From Lentimicrobiaceae bacterium (lineage in GTDB: Bacteria; Bacteroidota; Bacteroidia; Bacteroidales; UBA4417): DNA of 64,000 nucleotides. A model generated the notes under the pieces. It searched no databases and was not told where the DNA came from. It was given only the letters and a program-made list of their open reading frames with translations. Below are positions 21,362-36,608 of this stretch, in pieces. The DNA is taken from assembly GCA_028697555.1 (NCBI GenBank), contig JAQVEX010000001.1, positions 4,585 to 68,584 of the forward strand, in the 5' to 3' direction. The stretch's first letter is position 1. Every line of letters starts with the position of its first letter. A program made the translations under genes and the position numbers.

Positions 21362-22900
21362 TTATTGTTTCAAAAATTTAGAATACTTAACGCCGTTATT
21401 TGTTGCAACACTTAAAATATACGTTCCTTTTGGTAGAAAACTTACGTTGATGCAATTGTTCGAATACGGTCTATCGTAAAGTATTTTTCCGTCTAAATCA
21501 ACAATTTGCACATTTCCTATAACAGTTATTTTATCTGTATTAATGTAAATATTGTCGGATGCAGGATTAGGATATATTTTTACATTATCAATAAAATCAA
21601 GGTTTGTACCGATGTTCACATCATTATGTAGTCTGAGAGCAAAGAAATGTATATTATCCATATCCGGCGATGTTGAGCCCGACATAACTATTTTTCCGTC
21701 TTGTTGTAGTACAACACCACTTGCTTGGTCTTCTTGTCCAACCACATCATAAATTGCAATTCCGTTATTACCGAAAGAATTATCAACAGTGCCGTCTTCA
21801 AGGTATCTTACAGCAAAAATATTGTATGTTTTATAATCTACATATTCTCCTACAACAATAATTTTACCGTCGGGCTGTATAGTAAATCCTTTACAATAAT
21901 TTTCGCCATTAACAATGTTGGTTTTAACAATTCCATTGTTTCCAAAAGAGATGTCAGGATTTCCGTTTTCATCAAGTTGAACCAATGCTACATCGTATTT
22001 CAAAAACGGGTCATTTGTAATCCACGTGTGACCGCCAACCAAAATTTTGCCGTTTTTTAAAACTTTTAATTTAGTTGAATAATCGTTTCCATAACCTACT
22101 TTAATTTTAGAAACTCCAAGTTCTCCAAAGGTAACATCCAATTCGCCGTTTTCGGTAAAACGAGCAATCGTAAAAATGGGATTATTTCCGTCAAAGCTCA
22201 TTCCGGCAACAACAATTTTTCCATCATTTTGAAGGTCAATTGCTTTGACAAAGCTCATATAGTACTCCATTCCAAGAATTGCAAATCCGTTTGTGCCAAA
22301 TGTATAATCTACAGTTCCGTTGCTGTTATATCTAACAACTACAAATCTGTCTCCTGCATAGCCGCCGGTTACTATCTTGCCGTCGGGCTGGATAACACAG
22401 GCTTCAGCAATATTGTCCATATTGCCTATGTCGGTTGTAACACTTCCTGCGTTTCCAAATGTAAGGTCAGGACTTCCGTCTTCGTTAAATCTCCATACGC
22501 GTTCGTCTGTAGGTCCGTAAAGCGAATAGTTATGTCCTGCTACTACAATTTTCCCGTCAGACTGAATTTGAATGGCATTTCCATATTCTGAAACATCTGA
22601 TTCCCCGACAATAACAATACCGTTATTTCCGAAACTTAAATCCAAAGAACCATCAGTATCATACCTTACAAGTACCATATCTTTATAGGCTCCGGCAGAA
22701 TTGGTATGACCTACAAGAACGCATTTGCCGTCCTGTTGTATTGCAATACCGCTTGTTTGGCTATAATGATTGGGTGAAATTTGGGTAATGGCAAAACCGT
22801 TGCCAAAATCGCCGTAGCTAACATCAATTGCTCCGGCATTTTGCCCAGAAACAACTACGGATGAAATAATAAAAGTTAAAGTTAGTATTAGTGTTCTCAT
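21362..22900 (-). CDS. delta-60-repeat (beta-propeller-like) protein with T9SS type-A C-terminal domain
   Basis: ORF 21362..22918; start set at ATG 22900..22898 (MRTLILTLTFI signal). About 9 repeats of [ST]FGNNG[IV]...DGKI[VL]V[AG]G. C-terminal YPNPASDNIYI...KGTYILSV sorting domain. Confidence 0.65.
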   Translation of the reverse strand: MRTLILTLTFIISSVVVSGQNAGAIDVSYGDFGNGFAITQISPNHYSQTSGIAIQQDGKCVLVGHTNSAGAYKDMVLVRYDTDGSLDLSFGNNGIVIVGESDVSEYGNAIQIQSDGKIVVAGHNYSLYGPTDERVWRFNEDGSPDLTFGNAGSVTTDIGNMDNIAEACVIQPDGKIVTGGYAGDRFVVVRYNSNGTVDYTFGTNGFAILGMEYYMSFVKAIDLQNDGKIVVAGMSFDGNNPIFTIARFTENGELDVTFGELGVSKIKVGYGNDYSTKLKVLKNGKILVGGHTWITNDPFLKYDVALVQLDENGNPDISFGNNGIVKTNIVNGENYCKGFTIQPDGKIIVVGEYVDYKTYNIFAVRYLEDGTVDNSFGNNGIAIYDVVGQEDQASGVVLQQDGKIVMSGSTSPDMDNIHFFALRLHNDVNIGTNLDFIDNVKIYPNPASDNIYINTDKITVIGNVQIVDLDGKILYDRPYSNNCINVSFLPKGTYILSVATNNGVKYSKFLKQ

Positions 22901-23067
22901 AGTAAAATTTTTTAGCAAAAGTAAAACATATTCAATAAAAAATTAAAAAGTAAGTAAAAGTATTTAAAAAATATTTTTTCGGAAATCCGTATTTAATCGA
23001 CTGTTGAAACAACTTTTGTGCGAAGTCGAATCGTAAAAAAAAACATATAAAAAAAATAGTATTAAAA

Positions 23068-23102
23068 TTTGTAAGTTTCGTTTGTAAAATTTTTTACCTT
23101 TG
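23068..23102 (+). promoter_or_regulatory. weak candidate promoter for the SusC/SusD locus
   Basis: TTTG (23068-23071), 23-nt spacer (longer than typical), TACCTTTG (23095-23102). This would give a ~170-nt leader. Confidence 0.3.
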
Positions 23103-23277: not shown

Positions 23278-26200
23278 ATGAAAAGAATAATTACCCCACT
23301 ACTGATAGCGATAAGTTTATTATTTTCGCAAGTAGCATTAAGCCAAATTATTAGCGTTTCAGGTACGGTTATATCAGGCGATGATGACTTAACTTTGCCT
23401 GGCGTTACTATCCAAATTAAAGGGCAACCCGGAGTAGGTACCATATCGGATATAGATGGTAAATACAACATACAGGTTGATTCAAAAGGGACATTGGTGT
23501 TTAGTTATATTGGATTTGAAACCCTTGAAGTCCCTGTGAAAGGAAGGAACACTATTGATATTGTTTTAGCTGTCGATTCAAAGGTTTTAGGCGAGGTTGT
23601 TGTTACAGCCTTGGGTATTAAGCGTCAAAAAAGAGAATTAGGTTATTCTACCGATGAAATTGACGGAGATTTAATTGCCCAGTCGGGGAGCGACAACGTA
23701 ATTAGTGCACTTAGCGGTCGTTCTGCAGGTATTCAAATTGTCAACCCTACCGGTGTCGATGGCAGTTCTTCCCGAATCCTAATCAGAGGTAACAATAGTA
23801 TTACGGGCAACAACCAGCCCCTAATTGTTGTTGACGGAGTCCCAATGTCTAACGAAGGAGGCATCAGCAGTTGGGAAGGAGGTAGAGACTGGGGAACAGC
23901 CCTAAACAATATCAACCAGGAGGATATTGAAGACATTAACATACTTAAAGGTCCAGCTGCTGCTGCTTTGTACGGCTCAAGAGGTGGTAACGGAGTTGTT
24001 CTGATTACGACCAAAAAAGGGAAAAAGCAAAGCGGCTTGGGTGTTAATTATTCAATGAGCTACAGAATAACGACTCCATATTTATACAGAGAGGTGCAAA
24101 ACAAGTACGGAGCTGGCTGTCCTGCATCATTCAACAAGCCCGTATTACAAAAAAATAACGACGGAGTTTATATTTATCCCGGAATATACAACACCGACGA
24201 CGGACCCGAAGGTGAACCCACAAACACTACATTTGGTTATTATGGCAGCTCCGTTTCGTGGGGACCCGAAATGGACGGAACGGAAATTTTGTGGTGGGAC
24301 GGAGTTATGCGAAAATACTCGCCACAGCCCGATAATATCAGCAGATTATTTAAAAATGGGGGTTCTCTCACAAATAACATATCTATTTCAAACGCAGGCG
24401 AGTTTGGCTCGGTTAGGGTTTCACTTACCGACCAAAGATCCGACGCTATTATCGATAACACTAATTTGCGTCAAACAACTGTAAATGTCGGAACATCATT
24501 AAATGTATCGAAAAAAATAAAATCCGATATTTCGTTTACTTATTTGGATTACTCAAGACTAAATAGCCCCGAAATAGGTGAATCGTACAGCAACTTTTCA
24601 AAAGGCTTACTATATGGTTGGCCCCGTAGCTGGAAAGGCTTGGAATATGAAAAATATGAAAATCCCGACGGCTCTATGTTCGATTGGGGCAATTACGCAT
24701 ATTCTACGTATTTCCCGTACATGTACAGTTCAACATTTTGGAGTTTCTACAATAATAACACAACGCTTAACAGGAAAAAGGTTTTCGGCTCCATACGTTT
24801 ATCTTATGATATCAACGATTGGCTAAAAGCTACTGGTAAAATTGGTGTTGACTTCAGTCTTGATGAAATGGAAACCCGAAACAAACCAACTATGCCTGAT
24901 GGTATCACCGGTGGCGCGTACTCAAACGGCTTGACCAGAAATTACACAATGAATTCCGATTTCTTGATAACAGCTTATAAAAACAATCTGTTCGGACTAA
25001 AAATAAACGCCAGCCTATCTGCAGGAGCTGAGATGTTGTACGTAAACAACTACAACATTAATGGAAGGTCGGGAACGTGGGTATATCCAAATTTGTACAC
25101 ATTCTACAATTACACACATACACATCAGGTGCCTGGCGAATGGAGATACGAAAAACAAGTTAATTCAACCTATATGTTTTTCAACTTAGGTTACGACGAC
25201 TTTTTATTCCTTGATGTAACAGGCAGAAACGACTGGTCTTCTACCTTGCCTTCCAACAACAATAGCTATTTTTACCCTTCGGTAACATTGAGTTTTATAC
25301 CTACCGAAGCATTTGAAGAAATCAATTGGTATCCTGTTACGTTTTTCAAATTAAGAGGTGCATTTGCTATGACGGCAAGCGATGACGAACCTTACAAGTT
25401 AGATTTCACTTATTCTACCGGCAATTTTGCAGGAGCATCGTCTGCGTCATTACCTTGGTTAGTTCCACCGTTGGCACTTAAACCTCAACGTCAAAAATCG
25501 TGGGAGGTAGGAACAAACATCGAACTTATTAATAAGTTAGATTTCGATTTTACTTACTACTATATATACGCTTGGGATCAAATTTTTGATTCACCGCTAA
25601 CAAACTCGTCGGGTGCGGCAAGTGTTAGAACCAACTCGGGAGTCGTTACAAACAGAGGTTTGGAAGGTGTTTTGAATTATAAAATCATAGAACGTGCCGA
25701 CTTATGGCTCAAATCAGGAATTAACTTTGCACGAAACCGCAACAAAATCGATGATTTGGGAGGTGCAAATATTTATATACTTACTTCGCTATGGGGCAAC
25801 AACGGACCTGCTATTGCAGTTACCGAAGGCGATTATTACGGTACTATCTACGGTTGGGATTACGTATATTCGTACGTAGATGATAATGGCGAAACTATTG
25901 GACCATTCTACGATGCAAATGGTAAAGCCCTACCACTCCTTAACGACAAAGGCACCGAATATTTAAAGACAGACTCCAGAGTTGCCGTCGGAAACTCGGC
26001 TCCGTTTATTACCGGAGGTTTGAATTTCGCTTTAGGTTGGAATAATTTCACAATTTCCGGACTTATAGATACCAAAATAGGAGGCGATATTTATTGCGGT
26101 TCTTACGTTATCGCAATGCAAACAGGTCAGAGCCCTGAAACCCTGCACGAAAGAGATGGAAACGGATTGCCCTACTACGATGAAGATGGAAACTTTATAG

Positions 26201-26583
26201 GTAATTACGGAATCATTTTAGAAGGAGCTCATAAAGATGGTACTATAAACGACAAAGTTGTACACTACTATTATAAATATTTGCCTAACATGGGAGGTTG
26301 GGGCAATTATCTGACAAAACCAGGAATTATAGAAAACACATGGGTGAAAATGCGAGAACTATCAATTGTTTACAAAGTACCGTATAAGTTTATTAAAAAA
26401 CAGAATGTATTTCAAGACTTGCAACTTTCTATTGTAGGTCGCGATTTATTTTACTTTTATAAAACCCTGCCCGATAATATTAACCCCGAAGGTACTATCG
26501 GTACGGGTAATGCTCAAGGATTGGAGTATGCTTCCTATCCGGGCACTCGTTCATTTATTTTCTCAATTAAAGCCAGTTTCTAA
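23278..26583 (+). CDS. SusC/RagA-family TonB-dependent outer-membrane transporter
   Basis: 1101 aa with a signal peptide. Carboxypeptidase-regulatory-like domain (VSGTVISGDDDLTLPGVTIQIKG) and plug (NILKGPAAAALYGSRGGNGVVLITTKKG). Ends in a terminal Phe. No STN/anti-sigma signalling extension. Confidence 0.9.
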   Translation: MKRIITPLLIAISLLFSQVALSQIISVSGTVISGDDDLTLPGVTIQIKGQPGVGTISDIDGKYNIQVDSKGTLVFSYIGFETLEVPVKGRNTIDIVLAVDSKVLGEVVVTALGIKRQKRELGYSTDEIDGDLIAQSGSDNVISALSGRSAGIQIVNPTGVDGSSSRILIRGNNSITGNNQPLIVVDGVPMSNEGGISSWEGGRDWGTALNNINQEDIEDINILKGPAAAALYGSRGGNGVVLITTKKGKKQSGLGVNYSMSYRITTPYLYREVQNKYGAGCPASFNKPVLQKNNDGVYIYPGIYNTDDGPEGEPTNTTFGYYGSSVSWGPEMDGTEILWWDGVMRKYSPQPDNISRLFKNGGSLTNNISISNAGEFGSVRVSLTDQRSDAIIDNTNLRQTTVNVGTSLNVSKKIKSDISFTYLDYSRLNSPEIGESYSNFSKGLLYGWPRSWKGLEYEKYENPDGSMFDWGNYAYSTYFPYMYSSTFWSFYNNNTTLNRKKVFGSIRLSYDINDWLKATGKIGVDFSLDEMETRNKPTMPDGITGGAYSNGLTRNYTMNSDFLITAYKNNLFGLKINASLSAGAEMLYVNNYNINGRSGTWVYPNLYTFYNYTHTHQVPGEWRYEKQVNSTYMFFNLGYDDFLFLDVTGRNDWSSTLPSNNNSYFYPSVTLSFIPTEAFEEINWYPVTFFKLRGAFAMTASDDEPYKLDFTYSTGNFAGASSASLPWLVPPLALKPQRQKSWEVGTNIELINKLDFDFTYYYIYAWDQIFDSPLTNSSGAASVRTNSGVVTNRGLEGVLNYKIIERADLWLKSGINFARNRNKIDDLGGANIYILTSLWGNNGPAIAVTEGDYYGTIYGWDYVYSYVDDNGETIGPFYDANGKALPLLNDKGTEYLKTDSRVAVGNSAPFITGGLNFALGWNNFTISGLIDTKIGGDIYCGSYVIAMQTGQSPETLHERDGNGLPYYDEDGNFIGNYGIILEGAHKDGTINDKVVHYYYKYLPNMGGWGNYLTKPGIIENTWVKMRELSIVYKVPYKFIKKQNVFQDLQLSIVGRDLFYFYKTLPDNINPEGTIGTGNAQGLEYASYPGTRSFIFSIKASF

Positions 26584-26601
26584 CCAAAAATATTACACAA
26601 C

Positions 26602-28263
26602 ATGAAAAAGTTTATCACATATATAGCTTGCGCAACATTACTGTTAGCATCTTGTACAAAAGGGTTTGAAGAAATGAATAAAAACCCTACAACTCCTACC
26701 GGAACCGATATTCCATCGTTGTTTAACGGCGCTGTGTCGTCATTACTTTTAGGTTGGAACGAACAATTTTATTTAAGCAACGAAATATTTTATCCCGAAA
26801 CGGAACTTGCAGCCTTATCGGCAGAAGCTTGGGGTAATTACTCTATAGGAACAGAAGAAATTTGGAGAAATTACTATGCGGGATTGGCAAACATAAATGA
26901 CTTATCAGCCCGATTAGACAAGCTATGCAACGATAGTGCCGACCAGGAAATTGCTGACTACGTCAAAGCTCAGGTTATAGTCTTAAAAGCGTATAAAACT
27001 TTTAAAGTTACTGATATCTTCGGAGATATTCCTTATTCGGAAGCAGGAAAAATTTGGTTGCAAACCGATAATCCTAACTATCGACAGCCAAAATTCGATT
27101 CGCAAGAATCTATTTATAGATCTCTTTTAACAGAACTTGTTTGGGCTAGAGACTTTTTTGGAGATGCTCCTACCAAAACCGCTTTAAACCACAATTATTA
27201 CACAATTCCGGCTACTCACGACAATTTATTCGGCAATAATTGGTCGTCGTGGGAAGTGTTTGCAAATGCTCTGATACTACGTCATGGACTTCGTATGTAC
27301 GACAAAGACCCTGACTTCGCAAAGCCTTTATTGGTAAAAGCCTTCAGTAAGCCCGAGATTGCTGCATTTGCCGACATATGTATGTGGCCCCAAAAATTAA
27401 ATATTACCAATACCAGCGCGCATTGGTCGTTTTACGAACACAGAAATTTAAGAATGGGCGAAACAGCTTGGTCGCGAATGTACGACTCTACTTCTACGCT
27501 CCCGAATGGCATTTTCGATTACAGAGCGTACATATTTTTCGACACCGACAATTATTCTGCCGAAAATCCTAAAGGTAAGTGGGTTCCTTTCCCTCAAATA
27601 AAAGATGAAAACACTCCAAACGCAACAGGAGCACCATACTCAGGTTCAAGGTCATCGAACTTTTGGTTCAAACCTCAATGTAATTTTTCGCCTATTAATT
27701 ACTATCTGATAAGAGATGAAAATTACATTCCCGAAATACTTTTTACAGCTGCCGATTTAGCTTTTATTAAAGCTGAAATCCTTGCCCGAAATATAGTACC
27801 AGGCTCCGCTATGGAAATTGATATGATGCTTACTTCCGGCATCAAAAAGTCTTTTTACTTCTGGAACCAAATGCCTGATAATAGCCCGATTTGGACTGAA
27901 ACCTGGGATGCATACGCCGAACAGCAGCAGCTTGGAATAGATGCTAAAGCTCAAAATATGGCTTCGTATGTAATGAACCATTACTACGAGATCAACGGAT
28001 GGGTAATTCCTCAAGAAAAATACTTGGAATACATTATTGAACAACGCTGGATAAACTTGTTCCGTCAGCCTTGGGAGGCTTGGTGTCTTGCCAGACGAAC
28101 ATTCCAAACGCCTACAACTACAAACCATGCTAAACTTAAATCGTATCGTTTGCCGTATCCGCCTAGCGAAGTAGAATACAATAAAGAAAATTATCTACAG
28201 CAATTAAACAACATGTCTAATGGCGATACTCGTTCTACCAAAGTGTGGTGGATGACTAAGTAA
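26602..28263 (+). CDS. SusD/RagB-family nutrient-binding lipoprotein
   Basis: 553 aa. Lipobox LLASC. Lies 18 nt downstream of SusC. TPR-like helical composition typical of SusD. Confidence 0.85.
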   Translation: MKKFITYIACATLLLASCTKGFEEMNKNPTTPTGTDIPSLFNGAVSSLLLGWNEQFYLSNEIFYPETELAALSAEAWGNYSIGTEEIWRNYYAGLANINDLSARLDKLCNDSADQEIADYVKAQVIVLKAYKTFKVTDIFGDIPYSEAGKIWLQTDNPNYRQPKFDSQESIYRSLLTELVWARDFFGDAPTKTALNHNYYTIPATHDNLFGNNWSSWEVFANALILRHGLRMYDKDPDFAKPLLVKAFSKPEIAAFADICMWPQKLNITNTSAHWSFYEHRNLRMGETAWSRMYDSTSTLPNGIFDYRAYIFFDTDNYSAENPKGKWVPFPQIKDENTPNATGAPYSGSRSSNFWFKPQCNFSPINYYLIRDENYIPEILFTAADLAFIKAEILARNIVPGSAMEIDMMLTSGIKKSFYFWNQMPDNSPIWTETWDAYAEQQQLGIDAKAQNMASYVMNHYYEINGWVIPQEKYLEYIIEQRWINLFRQPWEAWCLARRTFQTPTTTNHAKLKSYRLPYPPSEVEYNKENYLQQLNNMSNGDTRSTKVWWMTK

Positions 28264-28322
28264 AACAACCCATTTTGTCAATTAAAATGATTAAACAATA
28301 TATTAACCTAAAAACAAATATC

Positions 28323-30884
28323 ATGAGAAAATTACTTACACTTATTTTCAGCTTAATGTTTATAAGTCTTTCCGCACAGGTTGAGTACTTGTACGACTTT
28401 AATAGTCTGCAAACGGGTACTAAATGTTTGAACGGACAAGACAGCTGGGTTACGCATTACCAAACGGCGTCAACATCTCCCGATTTTGATGTCGATTATG
28501 TATGCGGAGACCTTACAACTCCCGACGAAACAATAGGGATATTCTATCCTTATGGCGGACCAGGTATTGGTCGCACTGCAACCAGAAAAGCTACACCTAA
28601 CTTCAATTTCAACTTCCAAGACGGTGGTATTATGGATTTGGAAATGGATATGACCGATGTGTGGTGGGGAGCGTACTTTGGTGTTGGCTACGACGGAAAC
28701 GGGGACGGACACATTTTGGTCGGAATGACCGATGAAGACGGTGGAATTTTTATCAGAAATGCAGGTAGCGGTAACAATTACCACCCAAATTTAGTGCTAC
28801 CCGACGGCACTTCTATTCCTATTCCGTCTTTTACACAAAGCGGTTGGGCTCGTTACAAAATGTCCTTCGATTTTAATGCCTATAACGGACAAGGTTCTGT
28901 AACTGTATTTGTTAAGCCCGGGTGCGAAGGTCAATGGCTACAGCTATCAGAAGTTACCGAAGTTAATATGGGATTAACTCCCGGCTCAGGTGATAAATTC
29001 GATTATGGAGTATGGGACGGCTTATTTTTCCACTGCCAAGGTGGAACGGGAGGTTTCGACAACTTGTTGGTCAGACAAATGCCTCAAGGAAACGTGCAAT
29101 ACATCAGTATGGACGAAATTCCTAAGCAACTGATTACCAATCCTCCAATCACTCTTCAGGCTACTGCAACATCGGGTTTACCTGTTACTTTCGAATTGAT
29201 TAGCGGACCCGCAACAATAAACGGTAATATACTCACTCTTACAGGAGAAGTTGGAACCGTTAATATTAAAGCCATGCAAGGCGGCGATGCTACTTGGTTA
29301 CCGGCTCCCGACGTGTATAAAACTTTTGATGTCATCGACCCTATGGCTTATACGCCCGAAGTTAAAATTAGAAGACCTTACAACGACACAAAAGTTTATA
29401 TGCCCGAACTTAACCCGACAATGATTGTCGTTAGCGCTTATATAGAACACAGCGATGCACTTAAAATTGAAAAAGTTATGTGCAACGTCGATGGACAAGA
29501 TTTAGAAGCTTTTACTTACCACCCCGATGACCCGACAAATGGATATTTCTCGGTGCTTTGGACACCTTCTGACTTTGGCAATTATACGCTTAACGTCGAT
29601 GTTACCACAACGGGAGGAAAGGTTACATCTGCCGTAAGTAGTTTTGAAGTAACCAACAATTACCAAACCATGGATGTCCTGACAATTTGTGGTGATTTAA
29701 TTTGTTCTCCGGGCGTTACATCGGCAAAAGGCGAATATGTTATTCCTTCACACGTTGGAGCATTTAATAAAATAACCGCATTTTACGACCATAATTGCGT
29801 CAACGGCAATTGCGATACCTACGATAGAGTTGGTGGTGTTAATATCAGAAATTATCGTGGCGAATGGATGGAGCTTTTCAGATATATTTCTCCTTTCGGA
29901 GTTCAGTGCGAAGATAACCTCGACGTTAGCGACTACACATCTCTATTACAGGGCTTGGTTGAACTTGAGTTTTACTTCATTACTTGGAATGGCTCAGGAT
30001 ACAATCCAAATCTAACATTTACTTTCGAGAAAGGTAATCCGGAATATAAATATATTGATATTACCGAAGTATGGAATGAAACGTATCCCTTTGGCGATTA
30101 TGCCAACCAATCACCCATACATCCGGTTGACTTTAAATTCTCGCCGGAAGCTCAAAAAGCTAAACTTAAACTAACCTCTACAGGTCATAACTGGAGTAGT
30201 AATACCGCTCCAAATTACACTTATAATACAGGCAATGCAGCCGAATTTTACGAAGCAACTCACAACATTCTTATTGATGGAGCTATAAAATTCACTCAAC
30301 ATTTATGGCCCCAGTCAGGTAGTTGTTCACCAAATCCGGCAGGTTGTCAACCTCAAAACGGAACATGGACGTTTCCTCGCGCAGGTTGGTGTCCGGGATC
30401 AATAGCTATGGTTTGGGATTATGATTTGACCGACCAATTGAGCAAAAATTCAATTAATATCAACTATCAGTTCGATCCGGATTATTTGGACTTATGTCAC
30501 CCAAATCATCCCGACTGTATCGACGGTCAAACCTGTACCAAATGCGATGCTCCTGATAATCCAATTATTCAGGTTGCCGGAAAAGTACTTTCGTACAGCA
30601 ACAATAGTAGTATTTTTACAAATATCAATGAACCATTTATTCCGTTTAAACCTTCTTTCAAAGTTGATATTTCGCCAAATCCGGCTTCCAATTCCGTACT
30701 TCTATCATCAAATTACAACAAAGGAAAACTTAGTGTACATATATTGGATATGAACGGTAAAGAAGTTGATAGATTTGTTTTCAATAATTCTAAGATTCTT
30801 GACGTTTCGAAGTATCAAAAAGGAACCTACATTGTGTATATTATAGGCGATACAATGATAAGTAAAAAATTAATAATTATGTAA
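28323..30884 (+). CDS. multidomain T9SS cargo protein with PNGase F-like (peptide-N4-(N-acetyl-beta-glucosaminyl)asparagine amidase) catalytic region, paralog 1
   Basis: ORF 28275..30884; start set at ATG 28323 (MRKLLTLIFSLMFISLSAQ). The C-terminal half aligns by eye to Elizabethkingia PNGase F: NCVNGNCDTYDRV vs ECPNKTCDEWDRY, DVSDYTSLLQG vs DVTDFKSLLSG, GNPEYKY vs GTPDYKY, AAEFYEATH vs CAEWCFRTH, PRAGWCPG vs DRAGWCPG. C-terminal SPNPASNSVLL...KGTYIVYI is a T9SS type-A domain. Confidence 0.7.
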   Translation: MRKLLTLIFSLMFISLSAQVEYLYDFNSLQTGTKCLNGQDSWVTHYQTASTSPDFDVDYVCGDLTTPDETIGIFYPYGGPGIGRTATRKATPNFNFNFQDGGIMDLEMDMTDVWWGAYFGVGYDGNGDGHILVGMTDEDGGIFIRNAGSGNNYHPNLVLPDGTSIPIPSFTQSGWARYKMSFDFNAYNGQGSVTVFVKPGCEGQWLQLSEVTEVNMGLTPGSGDKFDYGVWDGLFFHCQGGTGGFDNLLVRQMPQGNVQYISMDEIPKQLITNPPITLQATATSGLPVTFELISGPATINGNILTLTGEVGTVNIKAMQGGDATWLPAPDVYKTFDVIDPMAYTPEVKIRRPYNDTKVYMPELNPTMIVVSAYIEHSDALKIEKVMCNVDGQDLEAFTYHPDDPTNGYFSVLWTPSDFGNYTLNVDVTTTGGKVTSAVSSFEVTNNYQTMDVLTICGDLICSPGVTSAKGEYVIPSHVGAFNKITAFYDHNCVNGNCDTYDRVGGVNIRNYRGEWMELFRYISPFGVQCEDNLDVSDYTSLLQGLVELEFYFITWNGSGYNPNLTFTFEKGNPEYKYIDITEVWNETYPFGDYANQSPIHPVDFKFSPEAQKAKLKLTSTGHNWSSNTAPNYTYNTGNAAEFYEATHNILIDGAIKFTQHLWPQSGSCSPNPAGCQPQNGTWTFPRAGWCPGSIAMVWDYDLTDQLSKNSININYQFDPDYLDLCHPNHPDCIDGQTCTKCDAPDNPIIQVAGKVLSYSNNSSIFTNINEPFIPFKPSFKVDISPNPASNSVLLSSNYNKGKLSVHILDMNGKEVDRFVFNNSKILDVSKYQKGTYIVYIIGDTMISKKLIIM

Positions 30885-30909
30885 AACCACATTTTAATAA
30901 TTAAGTGAT

Positions 30910-33507
30910 ATGAAAAAAATAACCTTTTTAATATTGATATTAACTTTAATATCGAGTGTAGTGTTTTCTCAGACTACAACCACGTACACATTTAACGATC
31001 TTAACGTTGGACCTTTAAACGGTCAGGATAATTGGGTTTCGGTTAAACATAGTGCCGGTGGCGGTGTCAACGAAGTAGATTATATTGGACCTCAGGGTGT
31101 CGTTACTCCAGACCAATCTTTGGGTGTGTTTTTCAAACATGCCAATACCAATTATGGAGAAGTTGCGACAAGAAAATCTACTTCAAATTTTAATTTCGAC
31201 TTTTCGCAAGGCGGAATCATCCAATTGGAATTGGATTTGAGTAACTGTAACTATTGGGGATATGCATTCGGCTTGGGCTACGATGCCGACCAAAATGGAA
31301 CGCTACTGCCACCAATGATATACGAGGCGGTTTATCCCAACCCAAACCTTCCCACACAAGATGGAGGTATATATTTGGTTCTTACAGCTCACAAGGATGA
31401 TAACGATCCCAGATTTCACTGCGGTATTGTTTTGCCCAACAATACGATGCCTGTCGAGTTTAAACTTCCGGACAGAGAATCATGGATGCGTTTCAGAATC
31501 TTTATAGATTTAGAAGCTAACAACGGTTCCGGAAGTGTTGCTTTGTTCCTTGATAATGGAATTACAGGAGAATTTCAGCCCATACCTGAAATTCAGGGCA
31601 TAGATGCAGGTCTAACACCCGGTTCGGGCGATAGATTTGACCCGAATGTTTGGGATGCGGTATTCTTCTTAAGCAGTAGCCATGGAGGTTTCGACAACTT
31701 TACAGTTACTCAAATTCCGGCAGGATTGCAAACTCAATTTATTAACTTCCCAACAATCCCCGATAAACTAATATCGGCAGAACCTTTTACGGTATCAGCC
31801 ACATGTACATCAGGATTGCCAATATCTTATGAAATTGTTAGCGGACCTGCTACCATCGATGGCGACCTTGTTACTTTGACCGGAGACCCGGGAATTGTTA
31901 GAATTAAAGCTTCACAAGGAGGAAATAGTACGTGGTTAGCTGCTCCCGATGTTATTCAACAGTTTGAAGTTGTTGACCCTTCGGCTTTTGTGCCCGAGAT
32001 AAAAATCAGAAGACCATACGATGGAACCAAGGTATATGCCGAAACACTCGACCCACTACTTATGGTTGTTTCGGTCGATATTGAACACCCCGATGTGATT
32101 CTTGTCGAAAATATGGAATTTAATATTAACGGACAGATAGTAAAATGTAAAAATGCCGGCAATAACTATTTTACAGCGCTTTGGGAACAACCGACGTACG
32201 GAACACACATAGCTAACTTGTCAACTACAATGTCGGGCGACAATACTTACGTTACACAAGCAAGCTTTGAAGTAGTTTCGCAAACAAACAACTATGAAGT
32301 ATTAACTTTTGATGGAAGTTTCCATATTTCACCAACCAACCATACAGTTACTGGCGAATTTGTATTCCCAACGTTTATAGGAGGTTACAACGAAATTAAT
32401 GCATTTTTGGATATGAATTGTGCACCCGGCGGTTGCGACACATACGATAGAGTTGGAAGAGTTAAAGCTAAAAATATACACGGTGATTATGTAGAATTGT
32501 TTAAGTACATCACACCTTTCGGAGTGCCATGTAGCGATGCAGTCGAGCTTACTGATTACTCTTCCGTGCTTCAAGGGTTGGTTGAATTTACTTTTGAAGT
32601 CGTAACATGGAACAGTGGTGGATATTTGCCGGTTTTGAATTTTGAATTTATTAAAGGAACTCCTGAATACAAATATTCTGATGTTGTTGAGATATGGAAT
32701 GGCAGGTTTGATTTCGGCGATTATATCAACCTTCAACCTGTGCCACCAATTCAATGGACTTTCAATCCTAATGCAAAAAAATCATCACTCATAGTAAGCA
32801 CTACCGGACACAATTGGAGTAGCAATACTGCACCAAATTATTCGGTTAATACCGGTAATGCTGCCGAATTTTACGAAGCTACACACCATATTAATATAGA
32901 CGGAATAAAAGAGTTTGTACAGCATTTGTGGCCCCAAAGTGGGACTTGTACACCTAATCCGGCAGGTTGTCAACCTCAAAACGGAACATGGACATTTCCT
33001 CGTGCAGGCTGGTGTCCTGGTTCTATTGCTATGATTTGGAATTGGGATTTAACTCAATTTATTAGCAACGGCTCAATAGATATGGAATACATTTTTGACC
33101 CTGATTACGTCGACCTTTGCCATCCAAATCACCCCGATTGTGTTGACGGAACAAATGGATGTCCAAACTGTGCCGCACCCGACAATCCAATATTGGACGT
33201 TTCTGCTAAAATTGTTACATATAGCAATAATAGTAGCTTATACGTAGGAAATAACGATTATAAGGTTATTGATAACTTAATTTCTTTCAACCTATATCCT
33301 AACCCTGCAAATCAAAAAGTTTTAATTACTGCAGATAATATAGACAAAGTTTTTTCAGCCAATATTATCAATTTCTTAGGTCAAACTGTAAAAACCTTCC
33401 AATTCGTAGGTTCAAAAATTATAGATATTTCAGACCTTCCAAAAGGTATTTACATTGTAAATATTGTAGGACAGAGATCGGCATCGAAGAAACTTGTTGT
33501 TAACTAG
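30910..33507 (+). CDS. multidomain T9SS cargo protein with PNGase F-like catalytic region, paralog 2
   Basis: 865 aa, collinear with paralog 1 and carrying the same PNGase F-like motifs (NCAPGGCDTYDRV, AAEFYEATH, PRAGWCPG). C-terminal YPNPANQKVLI...KGIYIVNI sorting domain. Its stop codon TAG is the first 3 nt of a heptamer array. Confidence 0.7.
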   Translation: MKKITFLILILTLISSVVFSQTTTTYTFNDLNVGPLNGQDNWVSVKHSAGGGVNEVDYIGPQGVVTPDQSLGVFFKHANTNYGEVATRKSTSNFNFDFSQGGIIQLELDLSNCNYWGYAFGLGYDADQNGTLLPPMIYEAVYPNPNLPTQDGGIYLVLTAHKDDNDPRFHCGIVLPNNTMPVEFKLPDRESWMRFRIFIDLEANNGSGSVALFLDNGITGEFQPIPEIQGIDAGLTPGSGDRFDPNVWDAVFFLSSSHGGFDNFTVTQIPAGLQTQFINFPTIPDKLISAEPFTVSATCTSGLPISYEIVSGPATIDGDLVTLTGDPGIVRIKASQGGNSTWLAAPDVIQQFEVVDPSAFVPEIKIRRPYDGTKVYAETLDPLLMVVSVDIEHPDVILVENMEFNINGQIVKCKNAGNNYFTALWEQPTYGTHIANLSTTMSGDNTYVTQASFEVVSQTNNYEVLTFDGSFHISPTNHTVTGEFVFPTFIGGYNEINAFLDMNCAPGGCDTYDRVGRVKAKNIHGDYVELFKYITPFGVPCSDAVELTDYSSVLQGLVEFTFEVVTWNSGGYLPVLNFEFIKGTPEYKYSDVVEIWNGRFDFGDYINLQPVPPIQWTFNPNAKKSSLIVSTTGHNWSSNTAPNYSVNTGNAAEFYEATHHINIDGIKEFVQHLWPQSGTCTPNPAGCQPQNGTWTFPRAGWCPGSIAMIWNWDLTQFISNGSIDMEYIFDPDYVDLCHPNHPDCVDGTNGCPNCAAPDNPILDVSAKIVTYSNNSSLYVGNNDYKVIDNLISFNLYPNPANQKVLITADNIDKVFSANIINFLGQTVKTFQFVGSKIIDISDLPKGIYIVNIVGQRSASKKLVVN

Positions 33508-33622: not shown

Positions 33623-35041
33623 TTAGAATCTAAGTCCGAATGTTAAGTAAATTGAGTTGGAGGATATATTCTGATTTGCAACAGGAGCAATATCGTACAT
33701 ATAAAAATCTTCTTTGCTTTTTTGTAGTTGATAAGCTATATCTACGAAGTAATTTCTTTCTCTAACACCAAATCCTACCGAATATGCTTTCATTGCTCCC
33801 AATTTGTCATTATCGGCGTATGGTGAGCCATAATAAGCGAATCCACCTCTTAAGGCAAATATCATAAAACGGTATTCAGCTCCAAATCGGAAGTTATGAG
33901 AGGGTTTAAATACTCTTTCTATTTTGCTATTCTCATCAATAAAAGCGTAAGTATCCGAACGTAAGTTAGCTTTTGAGTAATCAGTATATTCGTAGTCGCC
34001 TGAAATAATAGCATGTTGACCAATTATAAAAGCCATACTTCCAATAGCTCTTAACGGAGTGTTAATTCTGTAATCGAATTTACCTTTCGGCGAATCTTTT
34101 TTGGATTTAAAACCGTTGTCAAATTCTGAAGTAACAGTGCTGTTCCATTCGTCGGTTATATCATAGTACGCGGTAGGAGTGTGTATGGCTGCACCTATAC
34201 GCATAAAGTTGGTAGGTTGTACTATTACACCTAACTTAGCATTAATTCCCGAGCCGTCAGTATTTAATTTCTCCCTTAAACTCATAGCTTTGAAGTATCT
34301 TATATTATCAGTATCGTCGGTTTCAGTCAAAAAACCATTTTCGGTGTATGTAATATTTGTCAAGCCCAACGAAAATCCCAAAAACACGTAGTTGTGAATA
34401 TTTACACTTGCACTAAAATTAGTTTCGCTTACTCCACCCGTTCTTTTTATGGTTTTGGTTTGCGTAATACCTTGTCCTTGAGCCATGTCAATTACATACA
34501 TGTTGGTAGCAGTGTCTTCATAAATTAGTTCTGTGCTTACAGCCAATTCGTTTCCAAAGGGATCGCTAATACCTGAGTTTAGTTTATCTCTGTAGGAGGT
34601 AAGTATCGAATTCTGGTCGTTATAACCTCTAAAAAGAACACGATTACTAAAAGTGTTTGTACTATTAACTCCGATTCCAAGTTGTACAGAAACGGGTTTG
34701 TTTTCGTCAACAACATATACAAAAGATGCATTGCCTAAATACATAGTACTTCTATTGTCCGAATGGCTTTCGTTTAGGAAATTTGATTTAGTTGATGAAA
34801 AGTTTAGAAAGGGTGAAATCAAAAATTCTCCTTGGCGGTACAGCCCCATACCTGCGGGGTTTTGGACAGTAGCCGAATAATCTGCGCCAACAGCGCCGAA
34901 AGCTCCTCCCATAGATACAAAGCGAGCTGAACCACTATAGTTAAAACGCGAATACCTTAAGGCATCCATTTCATTTTGTGCTGATAATAATCCGCTTATT
35001 ACCAGAAAAATCATTAATAAGTTAATTTTTAAAAATCTCAT
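33623..35041 (-). CDS. FadL/PorV-like outer-membrane beta-barrel protein
   Basis: 472 aa with a signal peptide. N-terminal DALRYS...ARFVSMGGAFGAVGADYSATVQNPAGMGLY resembles the hatch region (NPAG) of FadL/TodX/PorV-type barrels. C-terminal LTFGLRF. Confidence 0.55.
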   Translation of the reverse strand: MRFLKINLLMIFLVISGLLSAQNEMDALRYSRFNYSGSARFVSMGGAFGAVGADYSATVQNPAGMGLYRQGEFLISPFLNFSSTKSNFLNESHSDNRSTMYLGNASFVYVVDENKPVSVQLGIGVNSTNTFSNRVLFRGYNDQNSILTSYRDKLNSGISDPFGNELAVSTELIYEDTATNMYVIDMAQGQGITQTKTIKRTGGVSETNFSASVNIHNYVFLGFSLGLTNITYTENGFLTETDDTDNIRYFKAMSLREKLNTDGSGINAKLGVIVQPTNFMRIGAAIHTPTAYYDITDEWNSTVTSEFDNGFKSKKDSPKGKFDYRINTPLRAIGSMAFIIGQHAIISGDYEYTDYSKANLRSDTYAFIDENSKIERVFKPSHNFRFGAEYRFMIFALRGGFAYYGSPYADNDKLGAMKAYSVGFGVRERNYFVDIAYQLQKSKEDFYMYDIAPVANQNISSNSIYLTFGLRF

Positions 35042-35096: not shown

Positions 35097-36608
35097 TTAG
35101 TGTCTTCCTGCGCCTGATGAACTTCTTGAGCTACTGCTTGACGAGCCTGAAGACCTACTGCTTGAAGAACCACTCGAGTACGAGCTTGAGCTACTTCTTG
35201 AAGGACTTGTTGAATAGCTTCTTGAAGAACTACTTCTTGAAGGCGAACTGTAAGTCGAACTAGATTTTCTGGAAGGAGTATAAGTGTTAGTACTACCTCT
35301 CTGATTATTGCTTCTGTTTAAATTACTCGGTTGGCTATTCCTTTGAGTTGGAGTATATGAATCTCTGCGGCTTGGAGAAGTTGTTTCACTATTGTTTCTA
35401 TAACGTGGAGCAGTGTATTCCTGACGACTTCTGGGCTGATTGTGCCTTGGTGCTGTGTAACGCTGTGTTGAAGTGTTTCTGTCGGGGTTTACTGTATTAC
35501 CACGCTCAACGTTGGTGTCGGTTCTTCCGCTTCCCGTGTTGCTTCTAACATTAGCATCAGGTCTATTACGTTCTGCGTTTCTAACAGCCGGTGTTGAGGT
35601 ACGTCCTGAACCTGAAGTGTTATCAGCAGGAGGTCTAACATCGGTACGAGAGCGACTGACATTGGTGTTGGTTCTTCCGGCATTCGTAGCTTCATCTCGT
35701 CTTACTGTTGGATTAACATTAGTGTTATCGCCTCTTGGTGAGCTAACTGAGGTAGAAGTTCTAGCCGAAGTGTTTCTGGCTTCGTAGCGTTCGCCAAAAG
35801 TACTATATTCGCTATTACGAGGCAAAGTTGAGCCTGAGGCTACCGAGTTTCTTGGACCGTAGTAGTATGAGTTTTTATCTAAGCTATTGTAGTAATTGTT
35901 GTTAAAGTAATCGTATCCCGAACCGTACCAATAACCATCATAAAATCCATGCCAATATCCTGAGTAGTAACTTCCATATCCCCAGTAGCTATATGGGCTC
36001 CAGTAGCTATATGGGCTCCAATACCATGAATAATAAGGTCTATACCAGTAGCTTCTGTACCACGGATAGTAGCTATAGTAATATGAATACGAAGGATACC
36101 ACCAATTGTAACCCATATATATACTAACGCCGTAATAGTATGGGTCGTAGTCGTACCAGTATCTGTTAGTATAGTAGTCGGAATAATAACCACCATAATA
36201 GCAAGGATTGTGGAAACGTCTTATACGTGCAGTATATGCGTAGTCGTAGTAATCGTCGGAGTAGTAGCCTTCATCATCGTAATAGGCTTCACTATCATCA
36301 TAGGTGTATTCATCATCTTCATCTTGATAATTTTCGTAATCTTCGGCATAATACTCTTCTGATTTTTTCTCTTGTTCTTTTGCTAGACGCTCCTCGCGTA
36401 GTTTTTCTATGTATTCTCTACGCTCTTTTTCTAATTCAGCTCTTTTTTTAGCAAGTTCAATTTGTTTTTGAGCATATAGTTCACGCTCTTTTTGGGCTCT
36501 GCTGGGTGTAATGTATGCGTCGTCGTAGTTGTAAAAGTTTTGTGTTGTAGTACACGAAGTTAAAACAAAGACTAACACTACAAAAACTAATGTTACTATA
36601 TTTTTCAT
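35097..36608 (-). CDS. low-complexity lipoprotein: coiled-coil K/E segment, acidic Tyr segment, extreme Tyr/Trp-rich core, Ser/Thr/Arg/Asn-rich tail ending in poly-Ser
   Basis: 503 aa. Lipobox VLTSC. The long ORF persists despite biased composition, and the Ser codons are mixed (not a simple DNA repeat). Lies 55 nt upstream of the barrel gene on the same strand. Confidence 0.6.
   Translation of the reverse strand: MKNIVTLVFVVLVFVLTSCTTTQNFYNYDDAYITPSRAQKERELYAQKQIELAKKRAELEKERREYIEKLREERLAKEQEKKSEEYYAEDYENYQDEDDEYTYDDSEAYYDDEGYYSDDYYDYAYTARIRRFHNPCYYGGYYSDYYTNRYWYDYDPYYYGVSIYMGYNWWYPSYSYYYSYYPWYRSYWYRPYYSWYWSPYSYWSPYSYWGYGSYYSGYWHGFYDGYWYGSGYDYFNNNYYNSLDKNSYYYGPRNSVASGSTLPRNSEYSTFGERYEARNTSARTSTSVSSPRGDNTNVNPTVRRDEATNAGRTNTNVSRSRTDVRPPADNTSGSGRTSTPAVRNAERNRPDANVRSNTGSGRTDTNVERGNTVNPDRNTSTQRYTAPRHNQPRSRQEYTAPRYRNNSETTSPSRRDSYTPTQRNSQPSNLNRSNNQRGSTNTYTPSRKSSSTYSSPSRSSSSRSYSTSPSRSSSSSYSSGSSSSRSSGSSSSSSRSSSGAGRH

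Follow-up and report, generated by a model that had tools for sequence, protein, structure and literature searches.

Here, we describe a four-gene locus in a 64,000-nucleotide stretch from the genome of an uncultured Lentimicrobiaceae bacterium of gut or digester (contig JAQVEX010000001.1, positions 4,585 to 68,584; this whole 64-kb stretch is called the window, and positions are counted from its first letter). In this locus a SusC/SusD transporter pair (SusCD) is tightly linked to genes for two secreted proteins, paralogs A and B, that have the fold and the residues of peptide:N-glycanase (PNGase) F, and the linkage is conserved in related genomes. Judged from their sequences, both paralogs very probably cut whole N-linked glycans off glycoproteins, and we consider it reasonably likely that the four genes form a compact, self-sufficient cassette for harvesting N-glycoproteins, in which surface PNGases act together with import through SusCD. 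The arrangement has hallmarks of a polysaccharide utilization locus (PUL), namely an adjacent susC/susD pair with a lipoprotein SusD and the two PNGase F-like genes directly downstream on the same strand. PNGases are amidases and stand outside the glycoside hydrolases (GHs) of CAZy.

Both paralogs, which are 47% identical end to end, belong to the PNGase F superfamily, and by modelled fold their catalytic domain is nearer to type I than to type II enzymes. PF09113 (N-glycanase_C) is matched with 49.2 bits by A and 38.9 bits by B (gathering score 25), while PF09112, the model of the N-domain, gave no match at E ≤ 0.01 in either. Despite this, residues 25-137 of the PNGase F N-domain are covered by the alignment from a phmmer search against all PDB sequences, which found PNGase F (1pgs, E 4e-28) with query residues 482-734 opposite PNGase F residues 25-280, and one homologue (P0010) is annotated by JGI with both Pfam domains. 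Paralog B, modelled with AlphaFold2 on 39 homologues at a mean pLDDT of 82.8, matches the two side-by-side eight-stranded antiparallel β-sandwiches of the superfamily (IPR015197). Its top four Foldseek hits are PNGase F entries (TM 0.79-0.81, target-normalised; rmsd ~3.5 Å; E ~4e-19), among them 1pnf (TM 0.81, rmsd 3.5 Å, E 4e-19), in alignments that span 334-340 columns against PNGase F chains of 310-314 residues at 23-24% identity. Next in rank are the type II PNGases 7ZGN and 4R4X, the zebrafish lysosomal PNGase 9LWG and enzymes of B. fragilis and B. vulgatus, the type II structures superposing poorly overall. An earlier reading of this DNA, made from the letters alone (the sequence-only reading), had aligned the C-terminal part of both paralogs with PNGase F by eye and expected a structural match to it; both expectations are borne out, as are those of PF09113 and TIGR04183 matches above cut-off, whereas the expected PF09112 match did not appear.

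Residue equivalents were obtained by counting along the phmmer alignment in PNGase F numbering and by codon translation, and the codons that had been named for Asp60-Arg61, Glu206 and Arg248/Trp251/Cys252 all proved correct (Table 1). In the 39-sequence alignment, the equivalents of Asp60, Glu206, Arg248, Trp120, Trp191, Trp251, Cys51/56 and Cys231/252 are invariant, and the same holds for 102 full-length genes from 78 loci, save that the Trp120 equivalent is Tyr in nine of the 102; the catalytic residues are correctly aligned, and invariant across about 100 relatives. Arg61 is His in a minority of the family but kept in both window copies, and A and B retain all of the chitobiose contacts Arg61, Trp120, Trp191 and Trp251. 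The cysteine pairs behave as had been read by eye: Cys51-Cys56 and Cys231-Cys252 are kept, and the Cys204-Cys208 disulfide is lost, these two positions being Ala and Tyr, with Phe in place of Trp207. The Y-D-R motif around Asp60 agrees with the aromatic-Asp-positive motif described for the superfamily (PMC12381499).

The claim of an intact catalytic triad therefore stands for Asp60, Glu206 and Arg248 in both copies, but it overlooked the fourth catalytically important residue, Glu118, whose place is taken by Ile in A and by Val in B. In the PNGase F cleft, Glu118 is the third acid, and it blocks core α1,3-fucose (PMC9522356). Among family members, 47 have Glu or Asp at position 118, 46 have Gln and 9 have Val or Ile, and the residue follows clades. 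Of the 26 A-type members, 23 keep Glu, and Ile or Val is confined to the window copy, to its twin L001 (97% identical) and to one more member; the clade of window B has Val in six of six; and the largest clade has Gln in 45 members, Glu in 17 and Asp in 7. Residue 601 of B, at the position of PNGase F Ser154/155, co-varies with position 118: members with an acid at 118 have Ser or Ala at 601, and Asp stands there in 91% of the Gln118 members and in six of the nine Val/Ile118 members, window B included, although this covariation is a clade-level correlation and does not represent independent events. A comparable shift is known from PNGase F-II, in which Glu418 has taken over the role of Glu118 (PMC9522356). 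An open 118 sub-site and activity on core-α1,3-fucosylated glycans are reported for recently characterised superfamily members (PMC12381499).

The catalytic domain is one part of a larger architecture of signal peptide, ConA-like domain, two Ig-like domains, PNGase F catalytic domain and C-terminal domain (CTD) of the type IX secretion system (T9SS), which in B places the ConA-like domain at residues 20-275, the Ig-like domains at ~276-460, the catalytic domain at ~462-772 and the CTD at 795-865. The N-termini of both paralogs are signal peptides (MRKLLTLIFSLMFISLSAQ and MKKITFLILILTLISSVVFSQ), and the CTDs score above the cut-offs of TIGR04183 (38.4 bits for A and 44.3 for B; cut-off 23) and PF18962 (43.1 and 44.9; cut-off 27), so their earlier description as T9SS cargo holds. 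For the N-terminal ~255 residues, Pfam and NCBIfam gave no match, and PDB sequences searched with a profile yielded nothing above noise (E ≥ 1). When this domain was modelled alone (pLDDT 89.8, pTM 0.90), its top 29 Foldseek hits were legume lectins, pro-concanavalin A among them (E 2e-7 to 1e-5, TM 0.45-0.6), and one distant homologue carries a precomputed match to Laminin_G_3, a ConA-like family, at the same position. A profile of the domain finds at least 241 cluster representatives (P0121-P0269 among the relatives), many of which are unrelated surface proteins that combine it with a T9SS CTD, HYR and SprB, with SLH, Flg_new (Listeria-Bacteroides repeat) and fn3, with Big_1, or with DUF285 and GLUG; we therefore regard the ConA-like domain as a mobile surface module without a Pfam model. 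Near the end of the catalytic domain lies a Cys/His-rich insert, DLCHPNHPDCxDGxxxCxxC (B residues 735-757, 33112-33180; an equivalent is present in A), which is absent from PNGase F and in which Cys737, His738, Cys744, Cys751 and Cys754 are invariant. It could provide extra disulfides or a metal site.

Of the two transporter proteins, SusC is a complete TonB-dependent transporter of the SusC/RagA type. It consists of a signal peptide, a CarboxypepD_reg-like domain (PF13715), a Plug (PF07715) and a barrel, scores 534 bits against TIGR04056 and carries the TIGR04057 signature; the domain search gave no STN match, in agreement with the earlier statement that the STN signalling domain is missing. 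Its best solved relative is BT2264 (E 2.5e-71, 244 bits), with RagA next (119 bits). SusD matches PF12771 (124.6 bits) and PF12741 (115 bits), carries the lipobox LLLAS↓C at its N-terminus and is matched by solved SusD homologues at best with E 3.5e-19. The four open reading frames (ORFs) lie on one strand where the sequence-only reading had placed them, with gaps of 18 nt between SusC and SusD, 59 nt or 11 nt between SusD and A, depending on whether A starts at ATG 28323 or TTG 28275, and 25 nt between A and B. We use the 59-nt gap because ATG 28323 is the start that fits the family consensus N-terminus MKKxxL...AQ.

Is this arrangement particular to the window? The ORFs of 78 related genome loci were clustered and their recurrent neighbours annotated. 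At 19 of the 78 loci, PNGase genes, one to four of them in tandem, come directly after a SusC-SusD pair (four in L042 and L043), and at one of these loci (L054:352-9961) two consecutive SusC-SusD pairs, 63%/54% and 50%/47% identical to the window pair, precede a single PNGase. The annotated flanks of these cassettes hold housekeeping or defence genes and a few T9SS-tagged genes without assigned function, and no GH or regulator was found among the annotated flanking genes of the 19 cassettes; proS often adjoins the cassette, as it does in the window. More distant cassette lineages have PNGases as low as 34%, SusC 48% and SusD 37% identical to those of the window. In L079 and L080 the order is SusC-SusD-PNGase-PNGase, with GH109-like, fucI and class II aldolase genes divergent upstream (L079:1-3829); L082 has SusC-SusD-PNGase with a convergent Peptidase_S46 dipeptidyl-peptidase gene (L082:12752-14911); L083 has PNGase-SusC-SusD-PNGase; and two further distant members adjoin other T9SS cargo instead of SusCD. 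As SusC and SusD of L079 are 48% and 37% identical to the window proteins over their full length, transporter and enzymes have been inherited together over long divergence. The neighbours of these distant cassettes conflict with each other, those of L079 indicating glycan use and those of L082 peptide use. The earlier proposal of a PUL with secreted PNGases and import through SusCD is, at the level of computation, supported by the recurrence of the cassette in the 19 loci and in the 34%-identical lineages.

The family also occurs in two other contexts. In about 23 loci, which form one closely related group, a T9SS-tagged M28 peptidase gene (e.g. L022:8687-10216) is followed ~24 nt downstream by a B-type PNGase gene, and elsewhere A-type genes adjoin DUF4249-like genes with an M28 peptidase nearby. 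The SusCD-linked and the M28-linked contexts can share a contig, as in L024 with L058, L020 with L060 and L027 with L065. Shorter M28 peptidases recur near other family members (e.g. L078:18351-19364). The M28 neighbours hint at a link between deglycosylation and exopeptidase action. Two candidate associations were discarded: gene pairs at about 22 loci ('c0 c0' pairs) are not tandem PNGases, since each pair begins with a T9SS M28 peptidase gene drawn into the cluster by its CTD alone, and the DUF4249-like neighbours were dropped as transporter partners because their match is below threshold and they lie on the opposite strand.

The window matches a Lentimicrobiaceae metagenome-assembled genome (MAG; JAPXLB010000013), with 87-97% protein identity over five shared genes in identical order. 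A homologue search returned 752 matches, more than 120 of them full-length at 48-95% identity, and a pattern scan of species-representative genomes gave 578 relatives. Almost all are from MAGs of uncultured Bacteroidales, Lentimicrobiaceae and 'Ca. Limimorpha', sampled from the guts of cattle, buffalo, deer, goat and horse and from digesters; distant members, 34-49% identical, come from environmental Bacteroidota MAGs. There was no cultured isolate among the relatives retrieved, and cluster look-ups and a search from a distant member likewise returned MAG proteins only. Most family members are annotated merely as 'T9SS type A sorting domain-containing protein' or 'hypothetical', and NCBI calls a few of the distant ones 'peptide-N-glycosidase F-related protein'. 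Neither the retrieved relatives nor the literature on T9SS-, SusCD- or PUL-linked PNGases, in which only Crouch et al. (2022) and Bakshani et al. (2025) came up, yielded a characterised member of this ~860-aa family. Three T9SS-tagged Bacteroidota contigs (L008, L051 and L066) stand in MAGs labelled Acutalibacteraceae or 'Ca. Limiplasma' (Firmicutes) and are probably mis-binned.

How might the cassette work? Both paralogs would be exported by Sec and then by the T9SS, to be displayed on, or released from, the cell surface, where the ConA-like domain and the two Ig-like spacers may hold the catalytic domain off the cell and would probably aid glycoprotein capture. The Asp/Glu/Arg set would cleave the GlcNAc-Asn amide bond and so release an intact N-glycan, the adjacent and presumably co-transcribed SusC/SusD would take the product into the periplasm, and exo-glycosidases encoded elsewhere in the genome would complete the breakdown. 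We lean towards the free N-glycan as the imported product, because nothing else that the cassette's enzymes make would fit the SusCD cavity without help from further enzymes, and because ordinary PUL logic and the fucose-catabolism neighbours of L079 favour it. The 118 sub-site is in contact with the core GlcNAc through O3 and with the second GlcNAc through O6. As A and B differ from each other, and from most orthologues, at positions 118 (Ile or Val) and 601 (without or with Asp), they probably accept different core decorations, for instance the core α1,3-fucose of plant and insect glycans.

Several observations weigh against a glycan-harvesting cassette, and those that concern the enzymes invite the view that amidase activity has been altered or lost. 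Glu118, a signature of type I PNGases, has given way to a hydrophobic residue in both copies, while 23 of 26 A-type orthologues keep it; copy A also lacks the candidate replacement Asp at the co-varying residue 601; the E118Q mutant of PNGase F studied by Kuhn et al. in 1995 is reportedly severely impaired; and the least confident parts of the B model are the active-site loops (residues 635-651 and 693-695). Together with the change of Trp207 to Phe and the lost Cys204-Cys208 disulfide, these points would suit PNGase F-fold, lectin-like surface binders, analogous to surface glycan-binding proteins (SGBPs), or amidases whose substrate is another glycoconjugate, be it a non-canonical Asn-linked one or of some other type. 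We regard such a change of function as quite improbable, since Asp60, Glu206, Arg248 and all chitobiose-contacting aromatics are strongly conserved and invariant catalytic residues are not expected in an inactive copy; moreover, active PNGases with Asp or Gly at 118 exist (PMC9522356), and the sub-site is open in characterised superfamily members (PMC12381499).

The remaining points against the cassette concern what is imported. No N-glycan exo-glycosidase is encoded among the window ORFs scanned, the structures of BT2264 and RagA, the nearest solved SusC homologues, hold oligopeptide ligands (PMC7782687), and many family members lack an adjacent SusCD and stand beside secreted M28 peptidases or other T9SS cargo. 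The locus might then serve protein foraging, the glycans being stripped as by-products so that secreted peptidases reach the protein, with peptides imported by a RagAB-like SusCD. The T9SS-tagged M28 peptidase upstream of B-type PNGases, the recurrence of M28 peptidases near A-type copies, the Peptidase_S46 gene convergent to the L082 cassette and the lack of glycosidases in the sampled cassettes would all agree with this, but we judge it unlikely. The window cassette and most SusCD-linked cassettes lack a protease, and unproteolysed deglycosylated proteins are far too large for SusCD, whereas free N-glycans fit as they are. The M28 association amounts to about a single event because it comes mainly from the one group of closely related MAGs, which share 10-gene synteny; the similarity to BT2264 is modest; and L079 has fucose-catabolism and GH109-like neighbours. 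That SusCD and the PNGase genes lie side by side without any functional link would explain why they share no regulator and why many family members occur outside a SusCD context, but the genes lie on one strand with gaps of 18-59 nt, and their order recurs in the 19 loci and in the 34%-identical lineages, where SusC and SusD have diverged along with the enzymes; this conserved synteny effectively excludes chance adjacency.

Compared with PNGase F of Elizabethkingia meningoseptica (1PNG/1PGS/1PNF), the window enzymes share the two-sandwich fold, the Asp60/Glu206/Arg248 set, Arg61, the three tryptophans 120, 191 and 251, and two of three disulfides. They differ from it at positions 118, 207 and 204/208, and in extra loops and the Cys/His-rich insert, and, unlike the 314-aa single-module PNGase F, they carry ~450 additional N-terminal residues (lectin-like and two Ig-like domains) and a T9SS CTD. 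At the level of the locus, the N-glycan PULs centred on GH18 enzymes, such as BT3983-3988 of B. thetaiotaomicron and the Gpd locus of Capnocytophaga canimorsus, follow the same logic of a surface enzyme that frees the N-glycan and a SusCD that imports it. GH18 enzymes cut inside the chitobiose core and leave a GlcNAc on the protein, whereas a PNGase frees the whole glycan and converts Asn to Asp. In contrast to the window, the surface enzymes of the GH18-centred PULs are lipoproteins, and the loci include SGBPs, glycosidases and regulators. A precedent for a PUL with an outward enzyme that is not a lipoprotein is the chitin locus of Flavobacterium johnsoniae with its T9SS-secreted, multi-domain ChiA, although there the enzyme is a GH18 chitinase acting on chitin and the locus has regulators and further glycosidases. 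The RagAB locus of P. gingivalis and BT2261-2264 of B. thetaiotaomicron, like the window locus, lack carbohydrate-active enzyme genes and rely on T9SS-secreted or distant enzymes, but their ligands are oligopeptides, they contain no PNGase, and their similarity to the window SusC is moderate (244 bits for BT2264, 119 bits for RagA). The contrast with GH18-centred PULs drawn in the sequence-only reading is thus real, yet less new than it was taken to be, as PNGases in or beside SusCD loci (PMC9522356) and T9SS PNGases (PMC12381499) have been described.

Crouch et al. (2022) described group 1 and 2 PNGases of Bacteroides and Phocaeicola, among them BF0811 and B035DRAFT_03341 (7ZGN), alongside PNGase F-II (4R4X), and showed that the variable position 118 governs tolerance of core α1,3-fucose (PMC9522356). 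Like the window proteins, these are Bacteroidota members of the PNGase F superfamily that serve nutrient acquisition, some of them beside susC/D, and in B. sartorii the PNGase gene is flanked only by a susC/D pair (PMC9522356). They are, unlike the window proteins, single-copy, SPI-signal, predicted periplasmic enzymes that have either no accessory domain or an N-terminal bowl-like (NBL) domain, with Asp or Gly at 118, and often accompanied by GH92, GH29 and GH3 (PMC9522356). The window family, by contrast, consists of T9SS cargo with a ConA-like domain, Ile, Val or Gln at 118, one to four tandem copies and no glycosidase. The window proteins do not carry the type II signature of an NBL domain, Gly at 118 and the relocated Glu418, having a ConA-like domain and Ile or Val instead. 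Also Bacteroidota members of the PNGase F superfamily are PNGaseL of Flavobacterium akiainvivens and PNGaseDo of Draconibacterium orientale, which have C-terminal T9SS signals and an open sub-site under the chitobiose; PNGaseDo, by its description, has three β-sheet accessory modules, much like the lectin-like and two Ig-like domains of the window (Bakshani et al., 2025; PMC12381499). That study reports most of its six PNGase genes, apparently including these two, as orphans (PMC12381499), whereas those of the window are linked to SusCD.

Table 1. Positions of genes, domains, active-site equivalents and a promoter candidate, in window numbering (A and B, paralogs A and B; residue numbers are those of PNGase F unless stated)
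Feature	Position	Strand	Remark
SusC	23278-26583	+	ORF, 1101 aa
SusD	26602-28263	+	ORF, 553 aa
Paralog A	28323(ATG)-30884	+	853 aa from ATG; ORF open from TTG 28275
Paralog B	30910-33507	+	ORF, 865 aa
A ConA-like domain	about 28374-29096	+	
A two Ig-like domains	about 29097-29663	+	
A catalytic domain	about 29670-30602	+	
A T9SS CTD	30669-30881	+	
B signal peptide	30910-30969	+	
B ConA/legume-lectin-like domain	30967-31734	+	
B two Ig-like domains	31735-32289	+	
B PNGase F two-sandwich catalytic domain	32293-33225	+	
B T9SS type-A CTD	33292-33504	+	
Asp60 (with Arg61)	A 29823-29825; B 32446-32448		motif YDR
Glu206	A 30243-30245; B 32866-32868		motif AEF
Arg248 (with Trp251, Cys252)	A 30378-30380; B 33001-33003		motif PRAGWCPG
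Glu118 position	A 29979-29981; B 32602-32604		Ile in A, Val in B
Ser154/155 position (B residue 601)	A 30087-30089; B 32710-32712		Pro in A; Asp in B, possible relocated acid
Candidate Bacteroidota -7 box TACCTTTG	23095..23102	+	fits TAnnTTTG; ~175 nt 5' of susC; weak

A scan of 30 window ORFs (five on each side of the cassette and 20 others) found no glycosidase, sulfatase, hybrid two-component system (HTCS), SusR or extracytoplasmic function (ECF) sigma/anti-sigma gene, in line with what had been read from the letters, and the sole regulator-like gene among them encodes a lone histidine kinase ~9 kb upstream. A dedicated PUL regulator is absent, SusC having no STN domain and the window flanks encoding none. 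The candidate -7 box upstream of susC fits a motif that we take to be that of Bacteroides promoters, but it is weak because the sigma-70 consensus scan, like that for terminators, did no better than on shuffled sequence. Divergent upstream lies a delta-60/DUF5122 β-propeller gene with a type A T9SS CTD (21362-22918, minus strand), followed by housekeeping genes. On the other side, two convergent minus-strand genes encode a 472-aa outer-membrane protein with a weak PorV/PorQ-family match (33623-35041; 34 bits, below cut-off) and a 503-aa lipoprotein without a family match (35097-36608), after which comes proS. The lipoprotein combines a charged coiled region, an extremely Tyr/Trp-rich stretch and a long Ser/Arg/Thr/Asn-rich tail. 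A second further T9SS cargo protein (8148-10736, plus strand; 862 aa) has Lamin-tail and Big_5 domains and a CHU_C (type B) CTD. Core por/gld genes were not found in the window, where these two other CTD proteins and the sub-threshold PorV/PorQ match are the only, indirect signs of a T9SS machinery.

SusCD-adjacent PNGases and T9SS-tagged PNGases have each been published separately (PMC9522356; PMC12381499), and in that respect the window is an incremental variant. The novelty lies in how these features are combined and in the conservation of that set: ~860-aa proteins with ConA-like, two Ig-like, PNGase and CTD modules that form a large uncharacterised clade, one to four PNGase copies as sole enzymes beside a BT2264-like SusCD, and a clade-specific rewiring of the core sub-site. 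PNGases are standard working tools in glycomics, where enzymes active on native proteins or on core-α1,3-fucosylated glycans are actively sought; natural variation at a specificity-determining sub-site, combined with a new accessory architecture, makes the family a target for enzyme discovery that could, if our reading is correct, yield PNGases with new specificities for glycoanalytics. With one transporter and one enzyme type, the cassette is also a clean minimal system in which to study the cargo of BT2264-like SusCD.

In conclusion, the cassette suggests that abundant, uncultured Bacteroidales and Lentimicrobiaceae of rumen, hindgut and digester harvest N-glycoproteins by whole-glycan release, which differs from the GH18 route of human-gut Bacteroides. 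A broader proposal, possible but doubtful at present, is that the cassette represents a widespread and unrecognised PNGase-only N-glycoprotein route of uncultured herbivore-gut and digester Bacteroidota, in which arrays of one to four surface PNGases, their core sub-site rewired with Glu118, with Gln118 and Asp601, or with Val/Ile118, would together strip mammalian, fungal and core-α1,3-fucosylated plant and insect N-glycans off native proteins, and a BT2264-like SusCD would import whole glycans or, less usually for such a system, deglycosylated peptides. Should peptides turn out to be what is imported, this would be the first SusCD system in which deglycosylation gates peptide uptake.

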